The position numbers and the translations under genes are program-made. The notes beneath the pieces were generated by a model, which made no database searches, was not told where the DNA came from, and saw only the letters and a program-made list of their open reading frames with translations. From Amoebophrya sp. A120 (Eukaryota; Protista; Dinoflagellata), in the NCBI GenBank assembly GCA_905178155.1, contig CAJINV010000002.1:8810225-8874224 (forward strand): a stretch of DNA of 64,000 nucleotides. The letters run 5' to 3'. Position 1 is the first letter of the stretch. Each line of letters begins with the position of its first letter. Positions 1,940 to 61,300 of the stretch are shown in pieces.

Positions 1940-2745
1940 GTTTGTGCTTTTAAGGAGGAACACTGCAGGTCCAAATCAACAGAATGAGGAGAAATAACTG
2001 CAGCTATTGTAAAGGCGAAATTTTATTCCTTGCTCTCGAGGACAATAATGCGCGTCTTTCTAAACCTAAAATCGTATTGTAAACTACTTCCGTTCCTGCG
2101 TCGATGTACAAAAGCGAATGGGCACCAACAGGATAACACGTGTTCCAGAGAGGTTTTGATGCTTGCAAGCGCGAAGCGGAAAGAAATGGCGATCGATTAT
2201 CAGCTGGTCAGCTAATTCTTCATCGATCCTGAGCTCGCCCCGTGCAGCGATAATTTTTGCGTTTCGCTAGTTCCAACACAATCCAGGGTATCTTCAGAGA
2301 CAGAGAGCTGCAGTATGCAAAAAGAATTCGAGAGCTTGATGCGCTTGCCTGTGAACATCGGTCTTCATCATCCTTGTTCCTCCAGATTGGAGGGCGTGGA
2401 AGAAGGGTTGCAGGTGGCATTTTCAATTGCCTGCAAATGAAAAAGTCGGGGGGGAAAGTACGGTTTCTAAGTACTTTCATACCTATGATGGGCAAGTATG
2501 TTTTTCGACTTGGACAGATAGCAGCATCAACACTGCTTTTTCTGCTGGTACGGTTTTTGCAATCACAAAGCTCTTTACTGGAGGAACATTGGTATGCAAA
2601 AGCAAAAGTAGTTGTCATGTGCATATAGCTTGCTTATCATCCAGTCGGGCGATTACCGTGCGGAGTTTTCTTTTTTTTCTGATACACGAGAAATCGCCAT
2701 CAATATGAGTAGAATCGATAGGGGTGGAATTCGCTTAGTTATCAG

Positions 2746-2797
2746 TTAGAGGTACACAAAATACATATTTTTCTTCATACTTAAAAATTTTATATGC
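2746..2797 (+). repeat. Left terminal inverted repeat of the giant element
   Basis: TTAGAGGTACACAAAATACATATTTTTCTTCATACTTAAAAATTTTATATGC. Confidence 0.8.
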
Positions 2798-3522
2798 GCG
2801 GAAATTATATATATTATCACGATCGGAAATAGATACAAGTGGCCGATATGTTGTACGAATTTATTATCATTGGAACGACTAGAGCAGTACTTGGTGCGGT
2901 TTTGACCTTGTAACTGATCAGGTGCCGAGCTTGATGCTATTTTTTCACGACCGACTACGATAGATCTCTACGTCGTTGCTTGAGCTTCATGATCCTTGCA
3001 CTTTCTATGAACGCGGCACATAATTAAGCGTTTTTTTTACGAGGATGCGGCCCCCTGCGATATCTACAACTAACAGCCTAGTGCTTTTTGACTCAAGATC
3101 TGTGCTGCTGCGCACAACCATCGAGAAAAGGCTTGCAAGACGGAGAAATTATATAAGTTAATGCACCAGCACGAAGCGCGATGGCATTTCGACAGCGGAT
3201 ATCTTCCCACCGCTGCGGGATGCGTTTATTTTTTTTACTTTTCAGTTGTGCTGTCAGCTGGGTGCACATCATTTTTGTTGTGAATTTACTACACTGAAGT
3301 TGACTGCTATGCTTTCGCAACACAGAAAGCGGATACAACATGCCTCGAAGCAACGCAGAGTAGTGCTTTTGTTGATGTGTCGATGTGGATGCGATCAAGC
3401 TAACTACGGAGTAGAAATTACATCACGCAAGACAATATCAAAAATAATACTACTTCTTGTGTTCTTGAAAGTGAAGTTTTTTTTGCATTACAAATCTGCA
3501 TGTTAATCCGAGCGAAAAAAAT

Positions 3523-6500
3523 CTACCCAAAAAGTTGCTTGTCGTTTACGGGGTCAATATCAAATTCGAAGCTATCGTCATTCAGCTCGAGGCTATCGCT
3601 TTTCGTTTTAGTATAAGTGAACTTTTGCGGCAAGCGTGGCAATTTCTTTTCGGTGATTCGGTCACTTTCCGCACAATTGCAGAGGGTATTATCACTTTCC
3701 CTGGCTCTTGCTTTTGCGGTAAGAATCGCGCAATTGAAAAGATCATCGCTACTTATTTCTTCACAAGTCAAATCTGAGCCAGTGTATAACTTTCCCCCTC
3801 TCCACCAACCACAAAAACACCTTCCCAACTCCGCGGCCCCATCCGGAACGCGGTGCGACATGGGGCCCAGTTGCACTGTCCTCCAGTTAGACTTTTGCAT
3901 TTCTCGGTAGGTGAGGCACGGCCCGCCGCCGGAAATAAAAGTTTTCTTGTAGATGATGATGTTTTTCTTGCACTTAGAGCATTCGCCGTTGTACTCTTTT
4001 TGGTGGTACTGCTTGTGCAGTTTGACGAGGTCGAGCTCCTTATGAAAAACGTCACTTGCGGCATCGACCTGCTTCTTCCACTTTCCACCCGCGTACTTGT
4101 TTCGATATTGTTGCAGCTCTTGTTCAAATTTCAGTTGCCCCTCGGATTTCGGCTCCTTCCGCACAGTGTCAGCAGTATGGATGCTAATTCGCGCCTACAA
4201 ACAAGCCAGGTCATATAGTTGAAGCTCAGAGCCGTACATAAAAAAACTGGATGGCTACAGTTTGTCACGCGTGCAATGACTGCTGCGGTTTCATTTGTAG
4301 GCGGAATTTATTAGATATTTCAAATCAGGCAGCGGCTGCGGATTCTGCTGGTGCGGTTCGTCTTGCACCGCCTGTAAAATATTGGAAAAAATTATAAACC
4401 GCACAAGGAGCGATCCATGCATGAGAAATCAGTCTGCTAATCGGGTCACAGCGAGAGCATTACACTGGGTGCACAAAATAGTTAGTACCTCTCTGTCTGC
4501 CACAACCTGCTTGCCAGCTGCTCCAAAAAGTCCAATCGCTCCTTCCAGAACCTTCTTCTCGTTCACTTTGATCTGGTCCGGGAGCATATTCTCTTCCTGA
4601 GTAGGCTCTTTAGCTTTCTTCGCGTTGTACTCGTCGATTTTCAGCCGGGCGTAGAACTGGATGTCGCTAGTCTTCTTGTCTATTTTTGCTTGCTCCATCT
4701 CGTCGGATAATTTTTTGTAAAAAGCCTTGATTGACATGCTCATCGTGCTGGCAACGCCGGTCGCGACGGCTTCATTTTTGTAGCACCCCTGCTTGACCAA
4801 GATCTTCTCGCCGTCCACTTCACCGAACATCATGCAAAACATAATGTCCCGCCAATGCTCGATCTGGTCTATTTGCTTCTCGACCCGCCGGAAAAAAACC
4901 ATCATCTGGTCCTTGGAGAATTCTTTTTCCTCCTTTTTCGGTCTGGTTTGCCACTCGTCAACTGCTGCAGTCGGTTTCTGTTGGCTTAGAATTTGCATCT
5001 CGGTAATGCCTTCCGGGGCATCAAAAAAAATTCCGTCCAGCATCTTCTTTTTCTCGCTGCTCGTCTTTTTATTTCCTTGGCGGGTCATGTGCTGAAACCT
5101 GACGTCCACCCGATAGTCTTGTAAGTCGCCAACAACCGAATCCGTGTTATTCTGCAGCGAGGAGTCATTTTGTTGTTGGTCATCTACCTTGGAGTTGTGG
5201 TGTGTGGAATTTTCTTCAAATACGTCCCACAAACGCTCCTCCCGTTCTTTCACACTGTTGTAGTCCAGCTTCCTCCAAAATTCGTATGGTTCGAAACACT
5301 GCCGCCCATCCATGTCCGGGCGAAAGTTGATGATTCTTCGGGGTTCGTCCTGAAACAAGAACTCGCATGTTTTCTTCACGTCCGCTTGCTTGGAACTTTT
5401 TGCGCCCGTAGGATTTGGAAGAACACCGTACCCGGCCTCGATCGCAGCCTGCAACGGAGTAAGCTGCTCCGTGTCAAAAAACCAGCAAATTCTGCAGCGA
5501 GACTTGTTCAGGATTCTGTACCGCGCGTCTCTGACGACCCGGATTTCTTGAAAATGCCCCGAGGTGCACATATCAATGCGCGAGGAGGTGATGAGCAAGC
5601 ATTTCAGCCGAGATTTCGTGGACATGGCGTGGGTTGGAAACGGAAGCGCCCAATTCCAATGCTCGTCTGGGTACTCGAACTCCGCGACGTTGCCAGCGTG
5701 TTTGTCATTTTCGTACTTCTTGGTCACGTCACCGCTGTAAGGTGACTCGAAACACCGGGCAAAACCTGAAGGCATCACATATTTACACTTTTAAAAAATT
5801 ATTGGCATGAAATTGCTGCTCGTTTTGCGCATTTTGGACGAACGTAAGCTGCTGCACAGGATTCAGCTGCAGATCAAATGCACAACCATAGGACACACGC
5901 ATAAACAATTATACTTGTACTAGATGCACACTTTTATAAGCAAGCATGGCGCGCAGCATCCCGCAATTGAATTTCAAAAATACCTCTCCACTTTCCCACA
6001 GCCTCGCCGCTGATCACCCGTGTGCTCCTCTGGAACTCTTGGTGTGCTTTCGGCAGGCGACCCGTAGCGGGTTGGTTAGGATCGGGCTCGTCAGATCCAG
6101 TTGCTTGGCCCTCTCCAAAATGCACTGCGTGGGGATCTAAAATATCCGCTTCCCGCAACACGACTACTACCAAGACCTGCAGGCTCAAATTGACGGACAG
6201 CACCTGGACAATGCGGGATCTCTTGTGGTAGAGGTAAATTTCCAGGCAGAGTGGTTTTCCTGCTTCGGTGTAGGCGTGGAGGAGAAAAAATAAGTACAGA
6301 CACTGGAGTCTGCCTCGCTGGCAGGCAGTTTGGTACTCTTCGGCTCCCTGGCAGATGTCGGTATGATGCTCGTCGATTATCGCCTCACAAACGCGGCGCT
6401 CGTGGAGACGCATGGTAGCGCACTTGTGATTTAGAAACTCTTTTACTTCAGCTTCCGACATTCCGTGTTTTGCGTGGTCCAAGTTCATGAATTGCTTCAA

Positions 6501-9500
6501 TTCTGGCAGGGCTTCCGCCAACTCGGGGTACTCGGTGTGCTGCTGGAGATTTCTTTGCAACTGCGGTTTCGGGTCGTTGTTCCACGCCGTGTTCTGTATT
6601 TTCATCATGTAGAGCATGCGCACGATGTCACTGGGTTTGCGAAGCGTGGCCATATTTTCGAACTCCGTGCCGTCCGGCCACAAATATTCGCGGCATTTAT
6701 CATAGTCGACGTCGGGCTCGTTTTCCAGCAACTGCCGGCCGTCCAAGACACTGTTGCTGTCCATGCAGCCTTTCCGTGTATAGAGCGTGGAAACAGGATC
6801 GTATGCTCGAAAACACGGCACCCAGGTCGGAAGACAAGACTCCTGCAACGCGTACTGGGTGCACTGTTTGATTGTTGTTTCAATGTGTGTCATTTGTCAT
6901 GCATAAAACGCAAGTCATTTTGCATTTCGGATTCGCAAAAAAAAATCAATATCTGCATTTTGGTACCTGCTGTAAAATCCCAGAGTTGTTGCCGCGACGC
7001 GACGTCCTGGAGAGAATGCCGCCGTACGCTTCTATACCCCGCGTACTGGGTATCATTACCGCCGGAAATTGTTCCAAAAAACTTTTCGCTTGTTCCGCCC
7101 CCTCCTTCTCATAAACTATTAACCACTTCCGGATGAGCCAACTATTCTCCATCTTCCCGAGTCCTGCGATCAGCTTACTGGCGATGGGATTTTTCCGCAG
7201 CCCCTTGACCTCCAAGATTTTCTCGAAAAGCTGGAGCTCGAACTTGTGCGAGCCCATGATCGCTCGATCGCGAAAGTGTGTGTAGCAAGCGGCCTTCGTC
7301 GTAGCAGTCTTTGTTGCCTGGATCGCGGATACTTCCTCCTCTTCCAAAAAATGGTACGGAGAACTTTCCAGGAATGCGAGGAAAGAGCGGTGCTGTTGCT
7401 TCAGGTAAAAATCCCGATCGCGACAAATTTCGGCAACTGAAGACTTCCACCCCTGGAGGTCGGATGGCAAATGCGCAAAATCCTCAAGCGTGAGGTCCAA
7501 CCCGGGCTTCATCCCGTAAAGTAACATTCTCTTTTCCATTGAGAGGCGGAGTTGCTGGGTTTTCACGGCCTTTTGCAATACCTGTTTTGTATTAGAACAT
7601 TATTTTTTTTGATGCAGTCGCGAAATAGAGATATTAACGGCCGCAGTGCCCTGATTGTGTATCGCCAGCAAAATGCAAAGCAATTTTCTTAGCATGAAAC
7701 TGCAGTAGTATAACCATAAACGTGTGCGCTTTGCATGACAAAAGCATGATCATCTGTACCCAGAAGAACCCCGCTCCGTAGGTTTCCGCAAATTTGTCCT
7801 CTTGATTCATCCGGAGAGATCGGCGAAGATCGTTTTCGAAGTGGGAATTGGACAAAAACGCCGTGTCCGCTAGCATGCTTGGAGACTGGCTGTAAAAACC
7901 CGCCCGCTGGTTCAAATTCACCCAGCCGATGGCTATGGTGGCCCCATGATAATACAGGGGTGCTCTTTTGCACAGTTCGCATATTAACGCCGCCATCCGA
8001 ATGCTTTCGTCAGCAAGTGTTGCACAGATGGAAACAATCGTGTTCGGATCGTCATCCGGGCCGAGTTTGGTCAGAGTTTCTTCCATCATGTTTCTCCCCT
8101 CCTGTTCCTTCCGCTCCCTTTTTCTCTCATCTAATTCCGTTATCCAGCTTGCAACGTCCCAAAAACCGTCTTGCTTGACCTTGTCGTCTAGCTCCTGCAC
8201 CTCGTCGTGAAAACTCCACACGGCCTTTTCCCTTCTTTTCGTGTTTGGTAGTTTGGCTTTGTTATGTCTGTTCTCGTCATCATCATCGGACTCGGAGTCG
8301 GTTTCAGCGTCGGCTTTGTCGATTGCTGATGTAATTTTGAATTCAAAATTTGAAAACAATTACGAAAGGCCTTACATTTGAAAACTTTGCATGACAAAAC
8401 CATCGGCGAACTACAGATGCAAAAAACAAAAAGTGCTTTTCTCTCTTTCCACTCCTGACCGCTTTTTGTCTTTGAACTGTAGCTTGTTGCAGGATTGGGC
8501 TAGGACGTAATCCAGTTCGAGTTTCTTCCACATGATTAACGAAGGCCTCCCATCTTTCGCAGCAGTTACAAAAATCTCCGAGTCGAGGGCCTTGCGATTT
8601 GGATTCTCGATGTAGAGAAAGCACCGGAATGCGAACCGCAACGTCGTCCACCCTGTTTTCGCGAAAAAACAAGTATAATCCATCTGGCAGAACCGCTCCT
8701 TGCTACTGAAGTTTCCCAATTGCGAGCGGATGAGTTTGCACCGAATCCTCACCGCATCTGCAAAATCCGGACTATCGTACGAGCAGTTGATTTCCGCCTC
8801 CAGATCCTCCCTGAACTCGCCGACCAGTCTGATGATGTCGTTGTCGTCGCAAGATTCGATGACCGCTGTGTAGAAATCGCCAAACTTTATGGAGTGTTTT
8901 CCTTTCGCCGTACTCCTCAGCCTGTAGAGGCGCTTCATCTTCACCGGCAGCATTTTCTCCGCAATTTTGATGGATTGCCGGTTCTCGTCGTGCGGGACGT
9001 CCCAATTGCAAATCGAGGGGCAGTATGAAAGTTAAAGACTCAGATACACATTTCAAAAATCGATCACCGTCGTATTTGTCATGCAGGTTTTCTAGTAGTG
9101 TCGCGCAAACATATATCTGAATCATTTTCACAAGATAAATCCCCGCGCTCAGCGCGCCACTGCGGGTAGGAATTCGCCGAACACTTGTCCATTGTGAAGA
9201 CCGTCGGGATGTCCACTCCAAGCCGGCCCCAATTCGTCAGGAAGGAAATGATCTCCAACAAGGCCGACAGCCAACAGCTGTATTTTTTTTGCTGGTAGGT
9301 GTAGTTGTAATCGGCGGTGTCAAGTTTTTTCAGGAACTTTTGGATATCCTGAAAAGAACCTTCCGGAAGCGCGACGAGCAGCATGCTCAGCGTGAACGCC
9401 TCATCAAGCGTGTCAAACAAAAACCCGCGAATTCGACTTTGAACAAACTCTCGTCCACCTAACCGCACGCCATCCAAGGCGCATCCCACTGCGTGTCCGT

Positions 9501-10082
9501 ACCGGGTATTCATCATCGCGTTGACCTTGATCACCTGCAGAATCCAGCAAACATAACCCAAGACCAGCATTTGTCGTGCTTTTTCCAGATGCTGCGTGAA
9601 GAGCGGGCTGTACGGCACGGCGCACATGGAGATGTGATGAGCGAATGGTAGTTGTTTTCTCCCTGCTTCTGCAATGGTGATAATTACGGGCGTGCGGTCC
9701 TGCAGCTGGTATCCTGAGGTAGAGTGATTTTTTTGAAATATTGCATGACAAATTGCGGAATGTCATTTCACGCAAGTTTATGCATGGCAAAAATCTAAGT
9801 ACCTAATCCCGGACGTTCTTGTGCGTCCCACATTTCGACAATGCGCCCGCACCACTGATTGAAATACTCCGCCATAGTTTCGATGCCCTGATTCAAATTT
9901 TAAGGTCAGCACTGTTTGTCATGCAGATTTCAGTAATCGTGAACAGTCAATATGCATAATCACGCGGACAATAAAAAGCATGCATTTGCTATGCGCAGCG
10001 CCATCAAATAATACTCGCGTCGTCCCATGTTGCAGAAGCCAACCGACAAATTGCTCAGAGGAGAAGTCGACTGTGGGTGTAT
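3523..10082 (-). CDS. Multi-exon DDE transposase-like protein (hAT/P/Kolobok-type RNase H fold), ~1,800 aa; 5' end unresolved
   Basis: Motifs occur in the expected order: CALDG (D at 9472-9474), TMDKCSAN (D at 9187-9189), WDVPH (8990-9001), KERF (~8695) and IPSTRGIEAY (E at 7030-7032). In-frame joins were checked at introns 8326-8454 (GA-AG) and 7582-7759, 6864-6966, 5766-5983, 4372-4488 (GT-AG). Joins near 9030-9130 and 4190-4310 are inferred. Confidence 0.6.
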
Positions 10083-10467
10083 CTGATAAGAAGACTATAA
10101 AGATGCGAAATATTTTCCGACACGCCGAGAAAGGTGCAACAAACTAAAATCGCCAAAATATGACATGCGTTTTTTGGTACAACATAGATGCTTCGAATTT
10201 GTTGGCTTCTTTTGCGCAACACGGTTTTTATTTCCGGACGGACAAATTCGAAACAGTCCTGCCGTCGAATTGTTTCTGCTAAAGTACGCGCAGCTCAAAA
10301 AAGACAAAACGATGCGCAAATCGACAATAAACAACTCAAACGCGAACAATCGCTGTGAGCTAGCTTTTTTGTGCAATTTTGGATGTGCCACTTCTATGCG
10401 CAAGTATCATGCGCGATCAAAGTGCAGCGACGCTGCGTGCAATCATGATGCTGGAGCGCGAAGTAAA

Positions 10468-10541
10468 AGCTCCACGCTCGAGCTCCACGCTCGAGCGTGG
10501 AGCTCGAACGTGGAGCTCGAACGTGGAGCTCGAGCGTGGAG
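10468..10541. repeat. Palindromic array of 13-bp units (CTCGARCGTGGAG)
   Basis: Two units in one orientation are followed by four in the other. 10468-10517 is a loop-less 50-bp palindrome with 24/25 arm match. Confidence 0.9.
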
Positions 10542-10594
10542 GTCCAACTTGGAGCATACTTGTGTATTCTGACGTGCGAAGTTCTGCTGTGTGT

Positions 10595-10810
10595 GATGCT
10601 CAAAAATATGCTCTTTGTTATGCTCAAAAAGTGACTACCTTTTTGACTACCCAAAAATTTCTTAGACCCCACGGCGCGCTCTCTGTTTGCGCGCTCAAAA
10701 TTATGCTTGTTTTTATGCTCAAAATTATGCTTTTTCTTATGCTCAGAATTATGCTCAATCATCGCGCTCTCGCGAGAAGAGCAAGCTCGACGCCTTAGCG
10801 TGATGCTCAA
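10595..10810. repeat. Degenerate ~12-bp-period TATGCT(C) repeats
   Basis: Example: TTATGCTTGTTTTTATGCTCAAAATTATGCTTTTTCTTATGCTCAGAATTATGCTC. Confidence 0.75.
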
Positions 10811-11338
10811 ACGCGGAGATTGATCAAGCAGAGAAGCCTAAAACTACCAAAAGCGGAAGTGCTCGAAAAACCTAAAATGGATTTCGGATTTAGGCTTTCG
10901 CGAAGCCCCCTTTTTTTAAAATGCAGCTTCTTAAAGGCCGCGCTCTTTTACCCATCTTGAATGCGCGCATAAAATTGCAGCGCAGACCTCCAGCTCGCTG
11001 CCGTCCACAGCAAATAAGCACGTGATCCGCATCAAATACAGCATCAACGCTGCGGCGCTTTTCGGCAAAAAGGCTGCTCCCCAAGAGGATTAATAAGCTC
11101 TGGGCATTGTGGCATCAAAATACCATAACACATGTAGAAGGATTGCTACAATAACAAGTATTACACGCTTTTGGCATGATTTGCGCAACAAAAACACTAC
11201 TAAAAAAAGGTAAATATGTACTCGCTTTGCCTGTGAAGGTTATCATCCCGGACATGTGGGCTATGCTAATGAAACGTCGCAGCTTCACCTTGAATGTAGA
11301 TGCTGCGATAAATAACTGTGTTGCTTTACCATACAAAG

Positions 11339-11983
11339 CTACTGCATCCATTCAAGGCAGAACTGCGAGCTACATTTCTTAAACAGACCTTGCATCTGTT
11401 CGACAGGCACAACCTGCCCGAGAAACACGTCCCGAAACACATCTGCTTGGTAGTTGCAGGCGACCAGCGGCTTGATCAGCAGCTCGGCGAAGATTGCGGC
11501 AAACTGCGCCGTCGTATGCTCCAACTTTTTCTTCACACGATTGCTCTGCTCCTCTTTGAAGTACTTCTTACACCGGCCGTTGATCAACATGAAGAACGCG
11601 TCCATCGTCAGCAAATCGGGACCGTCTGACCCTTCCGGAATCATAACCCACTGCTGTTTTTTTGCGGTCTCGGATTGCCCTTGTCGCTGCACGAGGCAGG
11701 TGTGCGTTTCGTTTTTGAAAATCTCCAGCATCAGGGTCAATGCTTTCCCACGGAGCGTGTACTGCTGCAAGAAGTCCTTCTTCGGATGGTCTTGCCACTC
11801 GTCCCGAGTACAGTTGCGAAGGTCCGTGATGGTTTTTACAAAGTGCTCCAGCGGAACACCTAGCAACAGCTCATTGACAGCGATCAAAGGCACGTCTGTC
11901 AACGCCGTTGCCTCAATGTCGATGTCGACGGGGGAAGACCCCGCAAACGACGCCAGTCGTTCCATTTTAATTCTTTTTTTCAC
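11339..11983 (-). CDS. Orphan exon/ORF inside the element; either a separate gene or the N-terminal part of the transposase
   Basis: 214-codon ORF with protein-like composition on the transposase strand. No family recognised. Confidence 0.5.
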   Translation of the reverse strand: MKKRIKMERLASFAGSSPVDIDIEATALTDVPLIAVNELLLGVPLEHFVKTITDLRNCTRDEWQDHPKKDFLQQYTLRGKALTLMLEIFKNETHTCLVQRQGQSETAKKQQWVMIPEGSDGPDLLTMDAFFMLINGRCKKYFKEEQSNRVKKKLEHTTAQFAAIFAELLIKPLVACNYQADVFRDVFLGQVVPVEQMQGLFKKCSSQFCLEWMQ

Positions 11984-12751
11984 ACTACATCTTTCAAATT
12001 ATTCTATCTCTCAGCTTTTTCTATATCGGATAACAGATGCACTCGTCATAAGAAATTTTTTGGTTCGAAAAATACTTTTTGACATAACAAACAAACACAG
12101 CAAATCACTTCAGTAGTTTCATCACCATCGCACTTTCAATTTCACAGCGTATATTTATTCCCAGATATCGAAAAAACATTTTGGACCAAAGAGAACAACG
12201 ATGCTTTGCACTACATTCATTTTTAAACTCTTTTACATCGTGTCCAGTTGCGTTTCCCCAGAAAAAAGCAATAATATGGCCCCAGCAAACTTGTCTGCTA
12301 CCGCTGCAGTCAGTGTTTGCATATAGCAGGAACAGAAAACTCCTGGCTTCATTGATGAAAAAATCAATGGTCTTCGGGACAAATGACAGACAACTAGATT
12401 GTGCAAACTGAGAAAAAGTTTACTTTATCTAGCGTGGATATGGAAAGGCAATCTATGCATTTTTTCCCAAAAAAATTCATTAATTGATACTATTTATTTC
12501 GAGCAGAGCCCCTTCATCATACAAGAAAATGAAATTCAATAATTTTTTACACAGTTGTGAACTACAACTGCTGCTTCGAAATAAAAGTTTTACAAAAAAT
12601 TGTACACGACGTGCAACAAAAAGGCGAAGGAGTTCACTTATATAAAAGTAAGACGATTAATAAGGAACTCGACTTCTAGTCATCTGCTGGCACTCACGCT
12701 TGCCCTACTTGGTGGTCTAATTCTTGTTCTAGAATTACTTGACTCCCTTGA

Positions 12752-15438
12752 CTAGATCAACTCATCCTCAGCAGCATCACTGCTTCCATCATCCATCGTG
12801 ACGAACGGCACCTCGGTACCATCGGCCAGGGTCACGGTCGGAATCTGGGGGTTCAAGATGTCCTCGATTTCTTCTTCCGGAATCTCCTGTTCGACAGCGG
12901 TGCAGTCCATGACTTCCGATCCGTCGTCCAGCAACGTGGAGATCTGTTCCAAGGCGGCGATGGGCACGCCACGGGCGGCGTTCTCGACCATGGAGACGTT
13001 CAGGTCGACGCGGACCGTCGAGGGAACTTGCGCTTCCCCAGCAGTAGTACTCATAGTGCGGCGGCGCTTCGTGTCCGGCTCAGCAATCACTTCTTCGTCC
13101 ACCTCCATCGGAGCGGCGGTAGACTCAGAACCACTGGCAACCGCAGCGGGCGCAGACGTGGCGTTGGAGATGATACCAGTGGGGGCCGCGGCCACGGGGA
13201 CAGAGGTGGTCGTCACAGGCACGTTAACGTTGGTGGGCTGCGCCAACATCGGGGTGACCGGAGGAGCCGGCTTGGCCACCTTCGGCAAGGACTTCTTCTT
13301 GAAACCGCTGCTCTTCGGGGCAGAACCGGCCTTGCTCACGACCGAGGCGGCACGCTGACCCGCTGTTTAGTTTTTGTTTGTAAATTGACAATTATCAAGC
13401 ATGATGAGTCTTTGCATCTTATCATGCACCAAAAGCAAAAAAAACTACCTTGATTCGGTTCGTCGGTCGGCAACAACGTCTGGATTCCAGACGTTGTTGC
13501 CGACCGACACTGGATCGAGGCGGGCTTGGCCTTGGACGGCGGAGCAGCTTTTGTTCGAATATTGATTATATTGCAATCGATCACAATCGTGCTCGCATCA
13601 AAACCAGTTCTGCATGACAAAAACATTATACCCTTCTGCTTCGGCTGCACATTCGCACCAAGGGATCCTTGCGAAAACAACAACCGCTGCGGCTCAATGG
13701 CGTTGTTGGAAGACGGGGTGTGAAACAGTCCTCCAAACGCAGACCCCATGGTCGAATCGACGTTCTGTTCGGCATTCGGGTCCAGCGGCGGCTGCGATTG
13801 CAGATCGGGAGACAAGGACGCCTGCGCCGCCATCTCGGTCTGCACGGTCTCCTTAATGCCGGCCATCAACTTCGACTCCATCTGCACCATACTGGTCTGC
13901 ATCAGGTTCTGCATCATCGCCAACAAGGCCTGCTGGTCGAGACCTGAGTATAATATTTTATGATAATACGCATGGTATAAAATGGCAAGCGATCACTTTT
14001 CAACACAAACTAAAAAAAATTATACCCAGTCCCGCACCCGCGGCTGCAGCAGCAGGAGCTTTCGCCACCGGAGCTTTCGCCTTCACCACCGGAGTAGCAG
14101 CAGCTTTCACCTTCGGATTAGCAGCAGGCGGCGCTGCCACCGGCGCTGCCGCAGCAGCAGCCGCAGCGTCCGGCATCGGCGTGTCGTCGACGGCAGCAGC
14201 AGCCGCACCAGCAGCTGGCTGCTCACCACCTTCTTGTCCCTCCTGCGGCAAAAATTCGGCGTCCATGATCACGTCGTTCTGCGGGGCGGCTCCCAAAGGA
14301 AGTTGACCACGGCGACCACGGCCGGCGATTCGTTCGGGGCTGGCCAAGGTGAACTCACCCAAACCATACATCGTCGGCTGGTACGTGGTCGTGTACAAAT
14401 ATGCAATGCAAATTTCAACACCGACCATCAGAGGCACTACGACAATACCGTATCAAATACATTACCTAGACACAACACACACAAACACAACATGCGTACT
14501 GTTTCTCATATTTCCACGCAAAGCCTCTCAGTCGGTGTATAGTTTTCAAAGGCATATTTCTCCCCACAACATGGCGATCTCCTCGTCCGACATGTCCGGG
14601 TCGTAGAACTTGTGCAAAGTGGTGAACCACAGCTCCAAAATGCGACGCTCAGACGCAGTTTGCAGCGGTTCGAGCACACGGACAACCTGAAGCAAGTTTT
14701 TAAGTGAAGGCTTGTATAATTTCGAGATTGCATCCACCATGTCGCATGCTGATTAAAAAAAAGCAATAATTTCTGTACCTCCAACCAGGATTCGCGGTAG
14801 CTGCACGTGATGCGGGCGGTCGCGGCGTGGATCAACAAGTTTATGCTATGAAAAATCGCACACAAAGCAACCTAAACGCAAGCACTCTCTTCGCATCACA
14901 GAATTTTTTATGCATAAAGCAGGACATTTTTTCAATCTGAAGACCGGTGCTCATCATGCAAAAATTTGCTTTGCGTAAGCAGCAGGTTTCTGCCACTTCG
15001 TGGGAAGTTCCCAAGTTGCGGGGGGCTGGGAATCCTGCAGATCATGAACACGGCCAGAAGGAGCCTCGCGGCAGACGTGCAGGTGTACTGGATCTCGCCG
15101 ATCTGTGGGTGATTTAATGTGTATTTCAAATGAGATAATAAAACGCGCAAGAATTTCATATACATATCTATGATGCTGTGCAAAAAAAAAACAAACATTT
15201 ATACCTCGACGGAGTCCTGGACGGCGACCAGGAGGCATTTCGTCAACATTGAAAGAGCAAGTTGAACCCACGCCCGGCTTACTTGGCCACTGCCAGTATT
15301 TAATAAGGTAGAAGCCACACCTCCACTGCGGGATCTCACCGTGGAGGTTTCGATCAGATTGCCCCGCGGCGGAGGGTTGCGCTCGTTGTTGTTCTGGCCA
15401 TTGCCATTGCCGGCATTGCCAGCGTTGTTATTCTGCAT
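12752..15438 (-). CDS. Multi-exon orphan cargo protein of the element, with a helical N-terminal part and an Ala/Pro-rich, acidic, probably disordered C-terminus
   Basis: A chain of GC-rich exons (MQNNNAG..., IGEIQYTC..., MVDAISKL..., YQPTMYGL..., QQALLAMMQ..., SKAGSAPK...DELI*) is separated by short AT-rich introns. Confidence 0.6.
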
Positions 15439-16271
15439 TTTGAAGTTGTGGCTTGAACTGCTGATCGCAGACAAGAAGACTTTTTTCGCTCACACTCAGC
15501 TACGGTTTTTGATTGAAAAGAGAATTTGTGATGCGCGGATGAAAAAATTGCTGTCTTTTGAAATCTCGAAGCCACAAATAAAAAATGAAGTTGCTCAACA
15601 ACAATTACACACTACAAAAGTACCCAATTGAATTACTACAATAATGCTATATGATCTCTATGGGGAGAAGTGCAAATGTCTATTTGGAAATTGCTGAGGG
15701 GATCCCGCATTATCGTCTTGTTTTGAAAGTACAACTCTCGAGATTATGTGTGATGTGTGGAAACAGAAACTCACGCTACGGGGACACACACTAAAACACT
15801 CAAAAAATATCTATCACAGACACGCTTCGCATTGCACTTTTTTCACAGAAACAAACTCTTTCTATTGTCATGAACGCAGCTCTAGTGAAAAAACGCACAG
15901 ACCTTTGCTCTGCAATACATCTCCACACTCCAACGCAAAAAAACGCAACTCAATTTATGCAGTGGAGTCTTGTGCTTTAGATTGGTTGAACGTACGGAAA
16001 TTCTCAACACGGTGGGGCTTAGTTTTGGATAAGTGAGAAAGTGTTGCTTCGGCTACACAAAATTTGCAGAACTATGGAGCTGTAGTTGGAGATTGATGAT
16101 CGTTTTCCGCATATCTTTCAAGCATTGCTTTGTGGAACACAATCATCAGAAAAGTTATGAAGTCGTATGGCTGGTTCTGCCACAGGTCAAGCACACATCG
16201 CCGCAGGTGCAAATTTTTGAAATCGCAAAGGTATTACGACGCTCACGCATACAAGTAAAAGCGCTGCAAAT

Positions 16272-17406: not shown

Positions 17407-17690
17407 GCTGTATCGAAGTCAGCGAGCTGGGCAGGGCGGATTACTCACTCATACTTTTACAGCGCGGCGCCTGTACAATGACCAGTCGGTGCGCGGTCAG
17501 TCCAGCTCGACCAGAGCTGCTTCCGTGTATCCACGCAATGGACTCCATATAAGATCGGCCCCCTGCTTCAGGCAGGAGGCTGGTACTGTAATCGCGGACC
17601 GCGACCAATACTGGCGCGCCATTTGAAAGGCGCGCAATATGCCGAGCCCGCCAATGGGGCCCGGCGGGGCATTGGCCCCAGTTGGTAAGA

Positions 17691-18045
17691 TGCTACAGCT
17701 GCAAGCAAGGAAGCGCCGAAACTTTTCGCGAACAACCGGAAGGCTTCGGCGTCCCGTTTTTCCGCGATCGGCGCCGAGGAGCTCGTAAACGGACTCCGGA
17801 GACGCCGCGGCGCAGGCACGGGACAGCTGCTTCAGGCCGTCCTCCGTCACAAGGCAGCTTGCAAACCTGTGACGTGTGCCAGCGCCCGGGAGCGGGAAGT
17901 TTTTTGCATGACGCCGGAAGCCCTTCAGGAACATCCGGATCTGCGTCTTTCCGTTCCCGCGCGTTGTACCGGGCGCACGCGCTCCTCACTCACTCCTTCT
18001 TTTCCAAGGAGGTGAAGAGGCGGGCCCGGGCTCGCAGCTGTAGCA
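17691..18045. mobile_element. Nested GC-rich TIR element (MITE/introner-like) inside the giant element
   Basis: TGCTACAGCTGCAAGC (17691-17706) matches the reverse complement of 18030-18045 at 15/16. AAGA is directly repeated at 17687-17690 and 18046-18049. Confidence 0.55.
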
Positions 18046-18571: not shown

Positions 18572-18623
18572 GCATATGAAATTTTTAAGTATGTTCTTGA
18601 GTATGTATTTCGTGTAGCCTTAA
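18572..18623 (-). repeat. Right terminal inverted repeat of the giant element
   Basis: The reverse complement reads TTAAGGCTACACGAAATACATACTCAAGAACATACTTAAAAATTTCATATGC. Confidence 0.8.
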
Positions 18624-49087: not shown

Positions 49088-49768
49088 GGTAAAGGTGTAG
49101 ACCAGGGCCCCTGGGACCAGGGCCCCCAGGACCAGGGCCCCCAGGACCAGGGCCCCTAGGACCAGGGCCCCTGGGACCAGGGCCCCTACGGACTGGGGCC
49201 CCTACGGACTGGGACCCCTACGGACTGGGGCCTCTACGGACTGGGGCCCCAGTCGTGTCTCAGAATCTGGCGTCCCGGAATCTGGTGCGCCGGCGTCTGG
49301 TTCTGGATGAGTTGGGGCGTCGCTCTACGTACAAAAAAAGCACAGCTCGACTTTCATAGTGACAATTTGAGATGTCTCTCGTTAGCACTTTGAGCTGCAT
49401 CCCTGTCCACTCAAGAAGTGCTTTTGCTGGGAAACATTTCGAATACAAACGGCGCCCGTCGGTCGTGGCGTCTGACTGTGCTTCTTTATTTTTCATTTCA
49501 TGACTCGGCGGCAGCTGTCGCTACTTGGCGTACCTCCTGGCCCGATGCTAGGACCTACATGTCATGACATGCGTACTTGGTGGCCCAGATACGCTGGTAG
49601 ACAGCTCCGGTTCCGGCCGCGCCTCGCCGTGTACCAGATTCCGGGACGCCGTTCAGTCCGTAGGGGCCCCAGTCCGTAGGGGCCCTGGTCCTGGGGGCCC
49701 TGGTCCTGGGGGCCCTGGTCTGAGCAGGGGCCCTGGTCTGAGCAGGGGCCCTGGTCTACCCGGATACC
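49088..49768. mobile_element. Non-autonomous Mutator/Foldback-like element (681 bp)
   Basis: 9-bp TSD GAAATTAAT (49079-49087, 49769-49777), GGTA...TACC termini, and inverted subterminal arrays of 15-bp units (GGACCAGGGCCCCYR / GGACTGGGGCCCCTAC-like). Confidence 0.9.
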
Positions 49769-52390: not shown

Positions 52391-53972
52391 CGTTTCGTGC
52401 AAATATTTCTTGATAAATGAAAACGAAGCGGAAAGTTAAAACTTGGTCAACTCGACGAAAGCGAATAACTGACAACAAGGTAGGCGAAAGATGAATCGAA
52501 AAATTTTGTTTCTCTGAAAAAAGCACTGCATTCATATTCTACCTTCGTAAACGTCATATGTGTGGAGTCTGATACTTATTTTCGAAGATCTTCGCACCAA
52601 ACAATCGCGGTACAGAAAAAAGCGACCGCTGTGCTAGAAACCACAAATTCTCTCACATTTTTGTTTTTCGCTCTCTGCTCGTCAACGTGAAAAAATGCAC
52701 TTTACATCTATAAAGAGCTTCCCTCCCCCGGTATGGACATGTTGCGACAGGTGAAGCCAAGCTAAACAGCAAAAGTGCTATATCTTAAAAATGGCTTGGT
52801 TCTGCAAGAACGAAAATCATCTTTCTCCAAAAGTTAACATCCCAATGAGAGAGCTGCCACAAAGACAGGTTCCCTCCGGACGAGCAGCTTTCTTCAGTCT
52901 CAATAATATTTTCGCCACTTAGCCTTACTTTCATCATGAGGTAAACCAATTTCATCGTGCAGATTTCAAGATTTTTCTTCGTTGGAACGTCAACATATTG
53001 ATACAAAAATGCAAAATAATTTCGAAACAAATATATTTATATTCAAGTTATCTGCGAAACTGAAACTCGTATCAGTCTGATCATATATCCTTACTCTTAA
53101 ATGCTGCGATAATCCAGTGCTCTAAGTTCAAAGGTGGATATGGATCCTTCACACCTGCGCGCCATATTAGTAACCGTTGCAACTAATTTCAGTAAATTCC
53201 TAGTAGGCTGGTCATCGATGCTTCAGATTCTGCTTCGGCCGAGCTCGTTACGCACCTTCTCTGACAAACACAAACCGGACTGATTGGTATTTGCAAGATA
53301 GTTTCAGGAGAGACCATAGCTGATGCTTTTCGTTTTCTATTATTTAACAAGATTTGAATTCATTTTCTTTTTTCAATTTCAATAAACTGCACGTATAATT
53401 TTCAAATGTTTCACTTATCCACCACACCCTGGAGGAGACCCCCATGCGCCCCCCGTTTTGTCGCGATCTACTGCGCCGGCCCCGGCTGCCCATGGCCCTA
53501 TCCAAGAAAAGAACTATGTTTAGTGGTAGTGCTGTAGGAGCTTCTTTAAACCAACGGCATGACAGAATCAGAAATAAGAAAGCTGAAGTTGTCCTGGAGA
53601 GCTGCAGCACAAGATGAACGCGAAACTACTCATGACATGAATGTCCGGCATGACAAGTGCAAATGTCTTGCTTCGACTGCATCACAGGAGAGCTACACCA
53701 TCAAGACGACAGTTCTTTTTCTTTTATTTTCCGTGGATAAACTCCCTGTCATGTTCGTCCACTTTTCGCCCAGCGATATCCTGTGTAAAAGCGCCGCACC
53801 TAGCCCAGATTTCTCATTCTCTTAATACTCTTTCTCATGCAAAGCTGCATACAACCCAGGATGTGTCTTATGCGCGGTCAGCCCCATCAGCAGCATATTC
53901 AATTACTAGTCGCAAAAAATATCTCGTGCTTTGCTCAGGATGAGCACGTGGATTCTTGATTCAAGCCAAAGA

Positions 53973-56900
53973 TCATGCGTGACTTGTCTGACTGATTTTC
54001 CCTTTGCGACTGGTGGGTACGACGTTTTTAGTACTCGGGATAGACCAGCTCCTGTAGCTTGCCGCTTTCTCTCTCGCTTGGTCCCTCTTCTCCTGCATCC
54101 AGTCCCTCGCCGCGCGCATCCTTCGCCCGGACGCTTGGTACATGCGATACACAGGCTGCACGACTCCTGACTCCACCCTGCTCACACCCGCATACACATT
54201 TGTGATGCCCATCCAGTCGATCGCACGGCGCAACCACTTGGGAGCAGCAACAAGCGGAACTTCCAGGAAGTGCCGTCGAAACAGGCCCGCGTCCTCCTCC
54301 GGCAACCGTTCTTCCGACCGCTTTGCCAATTTCGCCAACTCCCCCGTCATTGCGATGTTTTCCCACGCGGCCCCGATCACGACCTGCAAATACGACATCG
54401 TCAACTGCATATAGCGATCAAGAGCCTCGCTCTCGCTAGTGGTATTAGCCACGGCGTGCAGTGTAAAACTCAGCGTTTGGTATCCGTTCAGCCACCGCTT
54501 CACGAAAGCAGTGTAGAACTTGAGGAACATGGGAATCGGCTCGAACATGTTGTAGCTCATCAAAAATTCGTCGAAGGCCGCTATCTGCACATTCGTCAGC
54601 AAAACCGTCGGATCGAGAGATCCGGTGGGCTGGTGGGGCTCCGAGTCCACTGCGGCGTCCCCTTCGTCGTCATCTTTTTTGAGAAGAAACGACGAGTACG
54701 GTGCGAGGCCCCGCATGGCTCGATGTGAAGAGAGGCCCCCGCGAGGAAACATTTGCTGTTGATCCCGCTGTAGTTCTGCTGGCGCGCAAGCGGACCCGCG
54801 GCAAAAGTCTTCCTGGTCCACTTCCTGCAGAAACGACGGCGCAGCGTGGTTCGAGGACGAAGCACCTGCCGCTTGTGCTTTTGCCGCCGCCCCTCTCTTT
54901 TCCTTCGACCGTGCGGCACGCAGAAAACTGTCCAAAGCAGCATCGCCCGCTGCGAAAATGGACTTCACCACGCGCCTCTTTGCGTCCTCGTAGTTGGCCG
55001 GCGCGATTCCCTCCGGAGGCGAGGGCTTGAAGTTCGTGCCCAGAATGGGCGCCACGGTGCTTTCCCAAAACTGCCATCGCGCGTCGTCGTCCGGCAGGCC
55101 ACTCGTGGTGTTGCGGATCAGCGCACCCTCCAGAAAACACATCATGTAGAGAAACAACCGGTCGCACAGTGCGTAGTGCTGCGGTAACTTCTGCACAATC
55201 CCGAAATCAATGAAGGAAAAGACGCCACTGTACCGCTCGCTGGCAGGGCTCTCCAGCTGGGACTGCGTCGCGAACAAAATGTTCCCCAAATGCGGGTCCC
55301 CGTGGAGAAACCCCTCCGCGCCGTGCGCGGGGCACGCCTCCCGTTGCCACACCATGTAAGCTTGAATGTACGATTGCATAGCCATCTCCCAGTCGGTCAC
55401 GCGTTTGCCCTCCTTTCCCTCCGCGATCTGCTCGTTCCGCAGGTTCGTGTACGTGTCGCCCGGCGCGCGGTCAAGCACCAAGACGGCGGTGGAATTTGCC
55501 AGCACCGCGGGCACAGTGATCTTCAGCGGCTTCGTGTGCCCCTCCAGCGGCATCTCCTTGTCGTACCGCCGAAACCCCTCCTGAAACGCCTCAGTTTCCT
55601 CCCCCATGTCAAACTCGCCCCGGGACGCGTCCACCAGGTTTCCCAGCAGGTACTCCTTTCATGGACTGAAAAAAGTTTGCCACAGCGGTTGCTTTTTTTA
55701 TGCAGCGCATCAATGTATTTTCTGGCACCACAACTTTCTCTTCTTGTGCTGCAGATGACACATCACAAAGGAAAACCTCACGCACACACAGGGCCTCAAT
55801 TGTGGGAATATGCATTTATTTTTCCGCATCACCTCCTTTGGATACGATACTTTTTCTTTTTGTTTTTGTAAATCGCAAAAATGAACGATCGCAACGAACT
55901 TTTTTCGCTCAAATACTTTTTCACCAGGTTCTAGTCCAATAGCAGCAGTTTTCACGTACTCCTCCTCGGCGTCGAACTTCGCTTGCACGCCCGCACGCAC
56001 GATCTTCCCGAACGCCTGCTTCGGCGCGGGGAACGTTTGCAAATCGCCCGTCCCGCAGTTGTCCGCGTTTATCAAGGACAACGACACTCCCACGGCGATG
56101 CTGGCCCGGTTTTTCGGGTCCAAGTCGATTTCGTACAGGGGGTTGCAGGTCGGCAGGACCTTTGCGCCGAAGCCGAGTCGGGGCGGGTAGGACAGTCGCA
56201 GCGTCGCATTCTGGGTCGTCGCATTGTAGCGGAACTGCACATCCTTCAAGGCGTTCAAGCTTTCCAGCTGCAGTACCATCGCGGCCACGGGGGGCGTACG
56301 CAGCTGGGATTTAAACTTCGCCAGCTCCTGCCGGATCAAAGCGAAGTTTGGGCCCGCACGGTAATCGTCCGTGCCTTCGCCGAAGTTCTGGATCATTTTG
56401 TGCAGCACCGGCCCCGCGTCCTCGAACATTTTGACGTGGGCGCGACAGTCATACTCGACTTTGGTCCGGTAGTCATCCACATCGGTCTCCATGAGCTCCT
56501 TGTGCAGCGCGATCATCGGAATCTTCACGGCCTTTCCGATTTTCTCGAAATACGAGGCAAAAAACTGAATCGTCGCAACGCGCTCCGCCAGCGGTGCCAG
56601 CTCGCGGTAGTCCCTGCCTCCCGCAAAAGTTGGAATCAGGTGAAACCCCTCGGCGTAAAGGCAGGTTTTCTCCTCCCGGTTCTGCATGTCCACCGCGATC
56701 GCGTTTTCCTTCTGGACGTACGGTGGCCGCATCCACGCGGAAAATTCCGTCGCGCACTTGGGGTGCGTCCTGCCCAGCAGGTTTTCCAGGGTGATCTCGT
56801 CCAAGTCCCGTTGCTGCTGTTCCGACAGAACCGCACTCTTGCAGTCCTCCAGCGTGCCGCACAATGCGCGAATTTGCGCTGCGTCAGCGCGCAAAAACCA

Positions 56901-57293
56901 GTTGCCCACCAGAACATCTGCAATCTCTTCCACAACCTCCGCCGCGGCTACCACGCCCTCCTGTACCGCTTCCGCACCCTCCGCCACGGTTTCCGCGACG
57001 TCGTCAACGAGAGGTTCAACATCATCGCTGTTCTCAGTAGCAGGTTCCGCTTTCTGCCGCTTTTGCACGAAGGCCCGCGGGGATGGGAAATTTTGCTGCG
57101 AACTAGTGCTGGCATCCTCTTCGTCCGTGCTAACACGGACCGTCGTTGGTTGTTCCGGGGACTGACCGTTTGCGGCGGTTGCGAGGCACAGAGAGTGGCT
57201 TCCCGCCCCGATTGCCACGAAAGCAGCAGCGACAAGCTGGCCTCGTCGGTTGAGTAGAGTGAGACCGCCTTTTTGACTCATTTGCGTCATCAT
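53973..57293 (-). CDS. ABC1/UbiB-family atypical kinase, copy 1, with a signal-peptide-like N-terminus
   Basis: GPVLHKMIQ, ASIAV, KIVRAGV, EFD, FLHGDPHLGNIL and FIDFG. Single GT-AG intron at 55656-55916. Confidence 0.85.
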
Positions 57294-58395
57294 GATTGTG
57301 ATCTTCGTTTATTTCCAGTGCACAGTATCTCAGATGAGAGCCGAAAGATCAAAATCCAAGACCGTGCTATCTACGATACACCATGCCATGCACGAGAGAC
57401 CCGCATCCAAAAAACCTTAACCTTGCTTGTAATTGAAAGACAGGCTATATTATCTACGGGAGTTCTAGCACGACTTCAAATCTATCATGCTACACGATGA
57501 ATTTTTCATGAATAGACAGGGACAGCAAGATCCCGGGTACCTACGAAAAAGCTTCACTTGTTCTATGGCAACAACGACTACCATGCTGGGCGGCGACCGC
57601 GACCCTTTGGTGTCAAAGCTACTTAAATGCCGACACAAACCCGAACGACGAAGCCAATAGCAATACGAGTACGACAGCATTATCGTTGCTTCTACTAGAT
57701 TGATCTACTAGATCTTGATTTTTATACATCTCATGCATCCTCGAGGCTGGTGGAACCCAATGCGGCGCCGTTTAATTTCCACGATCACGAGTACAAGATA
57801 ATTACGAATTCATTGATAATGCGATTGCTTTCGCGACGCCTACGGAACATTCGTCGTCCACGGCAATCACAATCAGCCTCCGGGGACCGGGGGTGCTGCT
57901 TATGCACTTGACTTTTTTTTTCTTGTGCCATAATTTAACCTTTGATTACTGTACAGTCCATTTTTGCCCTTTGTTCATATACAAGTACACAAGCGAAGTT
58001 GTAGTCCTGCCGTACTCGTCAACCAAGACATCTAGTCTACACCATCATACAGGTATTATTTCAAAGGTATTATCTATCAAACCGCGATATTCATAACTCA
58101 AACTGCTCTCCTTCAAATTCGATATGAATTTGTGACACGGTGTGAGTACTTCCGACTGATCGTGATGTGCACCTTTGTTGGTACGAGAGTGATGATTTAT
58201 TTCTGCTGATGCTGCAAAAATTTTGAACGTAAGTGAAAGTCAAACTCAAAGTTAGATGGAAACATAATAATTGAGAAACAAGGTAGTGGTACAACTCTCT
58301 GCATCATCTCTTTAAATTGTTCAGGTGATGGCGATGGGCGTAGTTTTTAGTTTACCCCCGACACTTTCCCTCCGTCCTTCTTCTTTTCTTGTGTT

Positions 58396-61300
58396 TTACT
58401 TTTCCTCGGAAGTAGCCGCACCACCACCACTTCCACGCATCGCCCCCCACGCCTTCCGGATCTCGTCGACCCCAGACTGATACTTTTCCATTAGCCATGC
58501 CTTGGCGGACGCAAGCCTGTTGCCGACGGACGCTGCCTTGTCGCCCAGGGTGAAAATTATCGCACGAAAAAGGTTTTTCACTGAGGTCGTTCACTTTCTA
58601 ACATCTGCAACATTACAAAAACTTTACAGTGAAACAGTTTTTTCTTGCGATAAAAATGTTCTCGACGCCAACAAATTTGACTGCCTTGCGGATCATTCCC
58701 ATCCTCCATGAATCCGGATCGAGGTGGTCGAATTTCTTCAGTACCATGGGTTCGAGGAACTGCTCCCGGAACACGGCCACGTCTTTGTCCGGCAGGACCT
58801 ATTCTCGGCAAAAGTATCGCACTCTTCGTACTAATTGCTGTACAGCATGACAGGTCTGGTTTCACCATATCTTCAGTCGGGTCCCCACCTAGAAGTTCAG
58901 CATTACAAGTTGAACCTTCCTCCTTCTGAAGAAATTCGTAAATGCAGTTTCTCGTACCACCACTACGACCTAGTGCGATACTATTGCAATGCATAGGACC
59001 TCCTTCATTCGATGCGCTATGCGCGCAAACTCCCCGGGCGGCGACATGGTTTCTTCGGCGGACGACGTCTTATCCAAGAAAAAAGTGTGTAAAAAGTGCA
59101 AGAAAGACTAATGAAAGTAAGTAAGTCTGTGCTGTAGAAAATGCAAGACATCAGTCGAGCTTGTTGTGGTATCGCCTTTCCGTCAGACTCTCTTTTCATA
59201 TCTACTTGCACTAGTGCCGTGGGTGTCGTCCGGTCGTGACCGTCCGATAGATGCCCATGGCCCATGGCAAACCTTCTGTGTCATCCGTGAAGACGCTGCT
59301 GATCGAACAGAGTACACTATTAACACAGCTTTCCTCCTGGATACGTGAGTACCTCGATGTACAAGTCCAGGATTAGCTCCGCCCCTGGCCTAGGAAAAGC
59401 CTTCCTGAAGACCTCACTTTCTTTCCCGAACGCGTACAGCATTGAGTGCTGCAAGTTCAGGTAGCCGGTAATCCACCGCTTCGTGAAGGCGGTGGACCAC
59501 TTCAGGAACTCGGCGAACTGCTCGAACTGGTCGTAATTTTTCATCACAATTCCGAAGGCCGCAAGCTGCACTTCCGCGACCAGGTTCGGAAGAGTGGTGG
59601 TGGTGGTCGTCGTCGAGGTCGTGACTCCTGCATGCAGAAACGAGGAACCGGAACTGATCTTCGACATCCCCTGGTCCTCTCCAAAGAGAAAGAAGTCTTC
59701 GAACTGCAGCAGCGGAAACAAAGGACTAACACCAGGCGCTGCCTGCTTTTCTTCGTTGCGGTCCGCCGCAGCAGTGCGCGACACTTCACGTTCCGAGGTA
59801 GCGAGGAAGGATGAACTGCTGCTCCTGCTCTTCTCGTCGTCGTACGTAGCGAAAGTACTAGAGGACATCATGGACAAAGAAGTCGGCGCCGCACCAGTAT
59901 TTTTTGCTCCACTACTCGCCTGGAGCTGCTGCTCGCGCTCCAGCTGCAGAGTTTGATGTTCATACTGAACAAAAGAAACTTGACCCATAGTCGCGTTGGT
60001 GTCTTCCGTATCATGGAAAAACTGCTGGGACAAAAACGAGCTTGCTGCACCTCCTGGCTGGTGAAAGTCGAGCCACTTCCGGAGCCCCTTGTCTGCCTCC
60101 GCGAACACACTTGCCACCACTGCCTTCTTTCGTTCCTGCCAGACTGCCGGGTCGTTCTCGGTTGGGTTCGGCGACACGGCCAGGAACTTCGTACCCAGGT
60201 TGGGCTCGACTTTCTCCCGCCACAGGTTCCAGCGCGCCTCCTCGTCCGGCGACCCGTCGGGTTTTCGCAGCAGCGTGCCCTCCAGAAACGCGATAGAAAG
60301 CCGCATGATGCGCGCACAGAGGTAGAAACGCGGTGGCAAATCCGCCGAGATACCGAAGTCGATGAAGGAAAACTCGCCCGTGTACCTCGCGTCGTCCCCA
60401 CCGTCGAGGTCCTTTCCGTCGGCCCACAGAATGTTTCCAAGGTGCGGGTCGCCGTGCAGGAAGCCCGACCTCTCGTTGCCAGTTGGGCAGGCCTGCCGCT
60501 GCCACAGTTTGAACGCCGCCAGGTACGCCGCCATGGCGTCCGGCCAGTCGGTTACGGTGTCCACGGTCTTGGCTGGCGGGGTAGTGGACTGCGTGCGGTC
60601 TTCGGTGGTGGCCGCGAGCTGACGGTTGCGAAGGTTGAAATAGGTGTCGCCGCGCGCCCGGCCCAGCACCAGCACCGCGGAGGAGTTGAGAAGCACTTCG
60701 GGCACGGTGATGTGCAGCGGTTTATCCCGGTGGAGTTTGTCGCTCTTGTGAAAGGCGTGCGACTTGTATATGGCCTCCTCAGTTGCTTTTTACATCATTC
60801 TGTCAGCTGTAGTTACATACCCGCCAACGTTTTTTATTGTGGCACACCAGCTAGAGCTGCAGCAAAGGGAGACACTGACACGCACACGCTGTGCCGTTCG
60901 CATGACAAGTTTTGGAAAAATCTTGATGCTATGTATTTGAGGCATCCATCTCTATCTCAGATTTTTTGTGATGCGAAGCTATATGAGAACGGGAAAACAC
61001 GACGTCGCGCAGATTTTAAATGACAAATGGATTGGCCAGCATGTAGCAGTTGAGACGTCGAGTGTAATATCTTCACCTGAGGAGGCCATATTGTAGCGGT
61101 GCCGGCCCATCTCGTAGGCCTCCTTTTCGCCGGAGAAATCGAACTCGTCGCGCGAAGAGTACACCATGTTGTCCAGCAAATACTTTTTCCCGGCGGTAGT
61201 GAGACCAAAAATGTTCGCACTCTCGACGTAGGCAGCCTCCGCCTCGAATTTCCCCTCCACGCCGGACCGCAGGACCTTTGCGAAGGCGTTCTCCGGGGCC

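Follow-up and report, generated by a model that had tools for sequence, protein, structure and literature searches.

The giant element and the genes of the locus

The stretch of DNA analysed here (the window) comprises 64,000 nucleotides (nt) of Amoebophrya sp. A120 (GCA_905178155.1, contig CAJINV010000002.1, forward-strand positions 8,810,225 to 8,874,224). It holds a host gene whose 3′ untranslated region (UTR) is interrupted by a 15.9-kb insertion, called here the giant element, and a number of small introners, which are listed with the other features in Table 1. The subject of this analysis is the nature of the giant element, its loss from the host transcript, the putative transposase encoded by its gene D, and its relation to the small introners, which an earlier note had proposed it to mobilise. 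Also, a paralogue of the host gene was detected at 27147–27671 (E = 5e-21).

The exact 5-bp duplication and the TTA ends that had been claimed for the giant element were recovered, with ATCAG on both sides and a 52-nt inverted repeat. For a fixed pair of sites, the chance of an exact 5-mer repeat is 0.0012, and that of a repeat matching at 4/5 positions or more is 0.017. The two ends differ from each other at positions 4–5, where purines are kept, and the giant element is the only TTA-R-R-G end pair (R, purine) with a 4–5/5 repeat in the window. It thus displays the features of a terminal inverted repeat (TIR) DNA transposon: inverted ends, ATCAG present twice in DNA and once in the joined RNA, and ends that are repeated elsewhere. 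In DNA run X1, contigs with other flanks carry its left end (2 contigs) or its right end (3 contigs), and one contig corresponds to its first 60 nt and is divergent after them. These ends are thus present at a few further loci, where no near-identical interior goes with them, and the interior of the giant element itself (2795–18577) is a single X1 contig of depth 41, present in single copy. DNA depth is slightly raised over 12674–16008, with one contig joint 12886→14794, which hints that the gene B region has a second, diverged copy; the short side of this joint may be a repeat. Position 3455 is A in DNA run X1 and in RNA runs X3 and X6, and T in the window.

About four genes were modelled in the giant element from codon scores and reading frames, all of them on the minus strand. 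An exact look-up of 9 of its open reading frames (ORFs) in public protein sets found none (0/9), and the element had no match among viral and metagenome contigs, plasmids or Rfam. Polinton and Kolobok identities were rejected. Polintons and Polinton-like viruses (PLV) typically carry capsid, packaging ATPase, polymerase or integrase genes, and no match to any of these was obtained in Pfam or PHROG. P element and MuDR duplications are 7–9 bp long, and that of the giant element is 5 bp. Finally, Kolobok was dropped as the left end reads TTAG and not a TTAA duplication with RR..YY ends, and as the joined RNA retains ATCAG and drops the TTA ends.

Table 1. Features of the window (positions in nt; aa, amino acids; TSD, target-site duplication)
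Feature	Position	Strand	Remarks
Host gene ORF	19180–19779	−	199 aa; in public protein sets; giant element about 550 nt past stop codon, in 3′ UTR
Final host transcript piece beyond giant element	2437–2745	−	Contigs 2437–2745; read ends at 2463 and 2474
Giant element	2746–18623	.	15,878 bp; inverted ends and direct repeat; missing from host-gene RNA with one repeat copy
Left TSD ATCAG	2741–2745	+	Seen in sequence
Right TSD ATCAG	18624–18628	+	Seen in sequence
Left TIR, start TTA-GA-G	2746–2797	+	52 nt, 77%
Right TIR, start TTA-AG-G	18572–18623	−	52 nt, 77%
Gene D	3523–9875	−	About 8 exons, about 1,750 aa; modelled exons without stop; exon limits approximate, no RNA support
Gene C	11339–11965	−	One ORF, 208 aa; no family
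Gene B	12752–15440	−	Multi-exon; Ala/Pro-rich, low complexity; limits approximate
Gene A	16272–17985	−	Probably multi-exon; coding signal weak; no family
Candidate first catalytic Asp (LDG)	9472–9474	−	Invariant in 3/3 homologues
Candidate second catalytic Asp (DK[C/G]S)	9187–9189	−	Invariant in 3/3 homologues
DxxH signature (DVPH)	8990–9001	−	Asp and His invariant in 3/3 homologues
Candidate catalytic Glu (IPxTxxxExxGG)	7030–7032	−	Common to gene D and sole full-length homologue; weakly placed
TAT-type introner	32027–32306	.	TTCGA exact; first 28 nt perfectly inverted; open frame after removal
TAT-type introner	36332–36518	.	CTTGA/CTTGC, 4/5; in TBC-domain gene; open frame after removal
TAT-type introner	47045–47302	.	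ATCGC exact, TAT start; alternative edge 47054–47293 (4/5); upstream of DHHC domain
TAT-type introner	60769–61090	.	TTGTA exact; first 14 nt perfect; in ABC1-like kinase gene, window paralogue uninterrupted there
Further TAT-type element, 95 bp	58558–58652		AAAAT exact; open frame after removal
Element	53777–54042		First 14 nt as in 32027 introner; CCAGC repeat 2 nt off both ends
Motif TGTCATGC	6895, 7733, 8389, 9077, 9743, 9917, 13612, 17201, 20585, 32059, 32138, 32221, 47097, 47169, 53557, 53648, 58845, 60900		

Loss of the giant element from the host transcript

In all three RNA runs (X3, X6 and X8), the host transcript is joined from 2740 directly to 18624, which skips 15,883 nt, that is, the giant element and one copy of ATCAG. 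Runs X3 and X6 were taken as RNA by guess, on the basis of a spliced GT-AG intron and of the empty interior of the element. The depth of the joint was 412 in X3 and 44.7 in X6, and X8 contained 583 + 533 reads (1,116). The joint was absent from DNA run X1, whose contigs span both junctions and present only the filled site.

The filled left junction was also crossed by RNA, over 2716–3686 in X3 (depth 72.6) and over 2716–3403 in X6 (depth 35.4); therefore, those two samples carry the insertion at this locus. A strong host transcript would be expected to enter the right end of the element if insertion-bearing cells did not splice it out. No such RNA was detected in X3, where the bin depth at the right end was 32.7 for 32.7 expected from the host exon only, and splicing is therefore favoured. 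As for the cut itself, GT-AG is found at none of its six possible registers (0/6). The two ends of the giant element pair at −30 kcal/mol, below 300/300 controls, and the small introners behave alike. Amoebophrya introners are recognised by their removal from the mRNA, at borders that are non-canonical and lie between direct repeats, and such a loss is observed for the giant element. We conclude that the joint likely results from the splicing of a 15.9-kb non-canonical intron.

The RNA at 2716–3686 in X3 and X6, which covers the left end of the giant element and the last host exon, is abundant and could be a splicing remnant or a read-out from the element.

Gene D and its homologues

A HMMER search with gene D exon 9142–9714 against 1.84 billion proteins returned three matches: a protein fragment from strain A25 (E = 1.2e-5), a protein of 1,552 aa from strain AT5.2 (E = 3.9e-5), and a glycosidase-like protein (P0004), which was dropped as a chance match. 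Five gene D exons align colinearly with the AT5.2 protein (E = 4e-9 to 2e-29), the last exon does so weakly, and exon 7760–8335 had no match in it. In all, 391/1,451 aligned positions were identical between this protein and gene D. The three homologues are about 27–32% identical, and over the 247 columns common to them 4/28 acidic residues and 1/6 histidines are invariant. The invariant acidic residues are the Asp of LDG/TDG (D1), the Asp of DK[C/G]S (D2), the Asp of DxxH and one further Asp. Their spacing is also conserved, as D1 and D2 are 95/95/96 residues apart, and D2 and DxxH 20/24/24. Two conserved Asp followed by C/DxxH, the arrangement by which the C/DxxH group of transposases is recognised, are thus found in 3/3 homologues. 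The third acidic residue, a candidate Glu, is common to two sequences only.

Based on these motifs, gene D is predicted with good confidence to encode a DDE (Asp-Asp-Glu) transposase, and it would likely belong to a transposase lineage so far met only in Amoebophrya. Gene D shares the order D, D, DxxH, with a candidate E after them, with the C/DxxH group (hAT, P, MuDR, Kolobok, Dada), and the giant element resembles this group by its inverted ends and target duplication, as far as the group is described in the parts of PMC9587614 and PMC12730594 considered here. In contrast with the members described there, gene D has no profile match, a very long insert between D2 and E and a long C-terminal part, and the ends of the giant element start with TTA. 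The 5-bp duplication is a feature also of hAT5 (PMC12730594, in the part used here); however, gene D lacks the recognisable hAT transposase homology of hAT5, and neither its exons nor its homologues matched a hAT family in Pfam.

Other placements of the catalytic residues were dropped as the homologues do not conserve them, namely a whole MULE core in exon 6949–7599, a first Asp in the 5′ exon of gene D, and a Glu in exon 7760–8335. Single-sequence structure models of gene D reached a predicted local distance difference test (pLDDT) score of 44 and 35, too low to be used in judging an RNase H fold.

Small introners and the origin of the elements

The TAT-type introners of the window were largely as previously annotated. 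Exact 5-bp duplications and perfect TAT inverted ends were found again at 32027 (TTCGA, 28 nt) and 60769 (TTGTA, 14 nt), as was the 4/5 duplication at 36332. The 4/5 duplication given for the introner at 47054 also stands, and the limits 47045–47302 give an exact repeat; the edge is ambiguous, and the frame is kept with either. An open frame results once each small element and one repeat are taken out, and these frames, together with one paralogue, suggest that the small introners are spliced.

Amoebophrya introners were described as having inverted ends, a 3–5-nt direct repeat at the exon borders and non-canonical splice sites, with a consensus of TTA and two purines at the ends in A25, and of TAT, seven bases and AAA (TAT-N7-AAA) in A120 (Farhat et al., 2021, PMC7789003, in the sections considered here). 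The TTA and two-purine ends of the giant element fit the A25 consensus, and the small elements mostly that of A120. The earlier note had itself conceded that the TIRs were unlike. The comparison of 12 introner ends over 20 positions (one end set one base off) agrees with it, as 12/12 ends match the giant ends at 5–9/20 positions. Random 20-mers match these ends at 5.5 positions on average and reach 9 in 6.5% of cases; the introner ends are thus at chance level. No other stretch of the window lies within 4 mismatches in 20 of the giant ends, beyond an internal 20-mer at 41044. The proposal that the giant element mobilises the TAT introners is therefore not borne out, the ends being different and the 5-bp repeat length alone being shared. 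Such a duplication by itself is weak evidence of a shared mobiliser, because hAT5, others and a published Ginger-like A120 family also give 5 bp. The broader idea that this transposase family may generate introns fared better, given a predicted DDE transposase and an element exactly lost from host RNA, although the named TAT introners could not be linked to it.

On balance, we favour the view that the giant element carries a putative DDE transposase, is likely spliced whole, and is the likely mobiliser of a low-copy, TTA-ended family of its own and not of the TAT introners of the window. It can likely be classed as an introner of the autonomous type, from a new lineage of transposases. Insertion into the host 3′ UTR with a 5-bp duplication is seen in the sequence and in the joined RNA, which retains one copy. 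Gene D would then cut and paste TTA-ended elements by means of its conserved D, D, DxxH and candidate E. Removal from the RNA would take place at the direct repeat without GT-AG, the joint being seen and its production by splicing inferred, and the two ends would probably direct it by pairing with each other, as has been suggested for the small introners. Such removal by the host would allow a busy gene to tolerate an insertion of 16 kb, and short derivatives of the giant element would amount to TTA-type introners. The gene D family can likely make introns, because the giant element is itself exactly removed from host RNA. Going by the consensus given in the text for A25, relatives of gene D would be good candidates for its TTA-type introners.

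The giant element resembles the introners of PMC7789003 (in the sections used here) by its inverted ends, direct repeat and non-canonical sites, and by the TTA and two purines of those of A25. In contrast, those introners are short (analysis of 40–1000 bp) and without a transposase, whereas the giant element spans 15.9 kb with about four genes. The same sections report no transposase in A120, which was taken to rule out a general transposase-driven spread of the ~30,000 introners. Full-length transposons acting as introns (autonomous introners) are known in other lineages (PMC12130899, as far as considered here). In Dataset S2 of that study, of which 58/58 A120 rows and 30/60 A25 rows were covered, an autonomous DDE element is described in 0/58 A120 rows. 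One of these rows, A120 family 135, has 4 copies, an 18.8-kb alignment and only non-canonical splice sites, and is filed as ‘non-LTR, unknown’ (LTR, long terminal repeat). Set side by side by description only, it may be the family of the giant element.

Several observations weigh against the view that we favour. The RNA and DNA runs come from different samples. Run X8 does not contain any read in the giant element and differs from the window at 19042 in 1,038/1,297 reads; it may represent a lineage without the element (empty site), and for these two reasons X8 was left out of the case for splicing. A joint of greater depth (103.3) lies at 2735 in X6, with unknown letters between its sides, and removal of the element may thus not always be exact. 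The candidate Glu is one of many shared Glu, at a long distance from D2 (456–581 aa). The gene D exons had no match in Pfam, NCBIfam, PHROGs, PDB, Atlas or plasmids, word searches with two of the exons were blank, and PDB searches with the AT5.2 protein and with the alignment profile returned no transposase. Also, gene D RNA was almost nil in the runs examined, and target duplications of the other end-sharing copies were not seen in the X1 contigs.

Among the alternatives, it is possible, though on the whole doubtful, that the transposase which moves the TAT introners is integrase-like (Ginger-like) and has no relation to gene D. Integrase-type enzymes often give 4–6-bp duplications. In the covered rows of Dataset S2 of PMC12130899, A120 family 38 is a Ginger with ‘5-bp TSD, TA/TA termini’ and is homologous to LTR elements; however, this family is about 810 bp long with partial transposase homology, and the usual Ginger ends are lacking according to its authors.

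We regard it as rather unlikely that the TAT-type introners with 5-bp repeats owe their mobility to the gene D transposase or to paralogues that have other ends. The repeat length is common to the giant element and four small elements with exact repeats, and the giant element leaves RNA in the same non-canonical way. Also, no recognised transposase is reported for A120 in the sources as used here, and the gene D family escapes standard profiles; the ~1,950 TAT families published there would require a relaxed or multiple mobiliser. Against this stand the chance-level similarity of 12/12 ends (TTA vs. TAT), the rarity of giant-like ends in the window, and the presence of the gene D family in AT5.2, a strain whose introns are reported to be mainly canonical (bioRxiv 2024.09.05.611473, in the part considered).

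It seems unlikely that gene D lacks transposase activity (as cargo or a domesticated gene) and that another enzyme moved the giant element. The missing profile and structural matches, the scarcity of gene D RNA and the drift of the ends to 77% would agree with it. On the other hand, D, D and DxxH are invariant at fixed spacing in three homologues of ~27–32% identity, the exons are open, and no other gene between the inverted ends is as large as gene D.

It is unlikely that the joint comes from cells without the element, through a polymorphic insertion or exact excision, and not from splicing. The different origin of the RNA and DNA samples, and X8 with its variant and its lack of element reads, would be explained in this way; but X3 and X6 carry the filled left junction beside the joint, together with the 3455 variant of the DNA run, X3 is without read-through at the right end, and X1 is without an empty site. 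Template switching is an unlikely source of the joint because interior coverage is near zero.

Autonomous introners are already known in other lineages; the location in a 3′ UTR and the RNA joint that removes the element with one repeat copy are new here. The giant element and the gene D family are undescribed in the literature searched, including the parts considered of PMC10824691, PMC11282704 and bioRxiv 2020.10.14.339549; the supplementary figures and file 13 of PMC12130899 lie outside this scope and may bear on novelty. As the gene D family is invisible to profiles and yet present in three strains, it reopens the question of a transposase-driven spread of A120 introners, and it points to a specific gene that can be tested. 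Being 15.9 kb long and removed at non-canonical sites, the giant element also offers one locus at which the splicing route (end pairing, repeat dependence, length limit) can be probed, and would illustrate how a full-size transposon hides within a highly expressed gene. More speculatively, and with considerable doubt, giant spliceable transposons with unrecognised DDE transposases could be the driver so far missing behind the explosion of introns in Amoebophrya, producing the A25 TTA introners directly and the A120 TAT introners via diverged gene D paralogues, in a cell that would recognise introns of whatever length, up to 16 kb, from their paired ends and direct repeat.

Motif TGTCATGC occurs 18 times in the window on either strand, for about 2 expected, and 18/18 occurrences lie outside the approximate coding blocks. 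It is found in 5 of the 7 gene D introns and in three small introners, and is likely a general DNA-level signal of the Amoebophrya sp. A120 genome; it resembles the apicomplexan TGCATGCA motif. The ABC1-like kinase genes form a tandem pair (53973–57308 and 59320–62265) whose intron positions differ. Large inverted arrays of 15–16-nt units, about 440–520 nt apart, occupy 49099–49760 and are possibly another foldback element. Finally, a nested palindromic repeat array at 63430–64000 continues past the end of the window.

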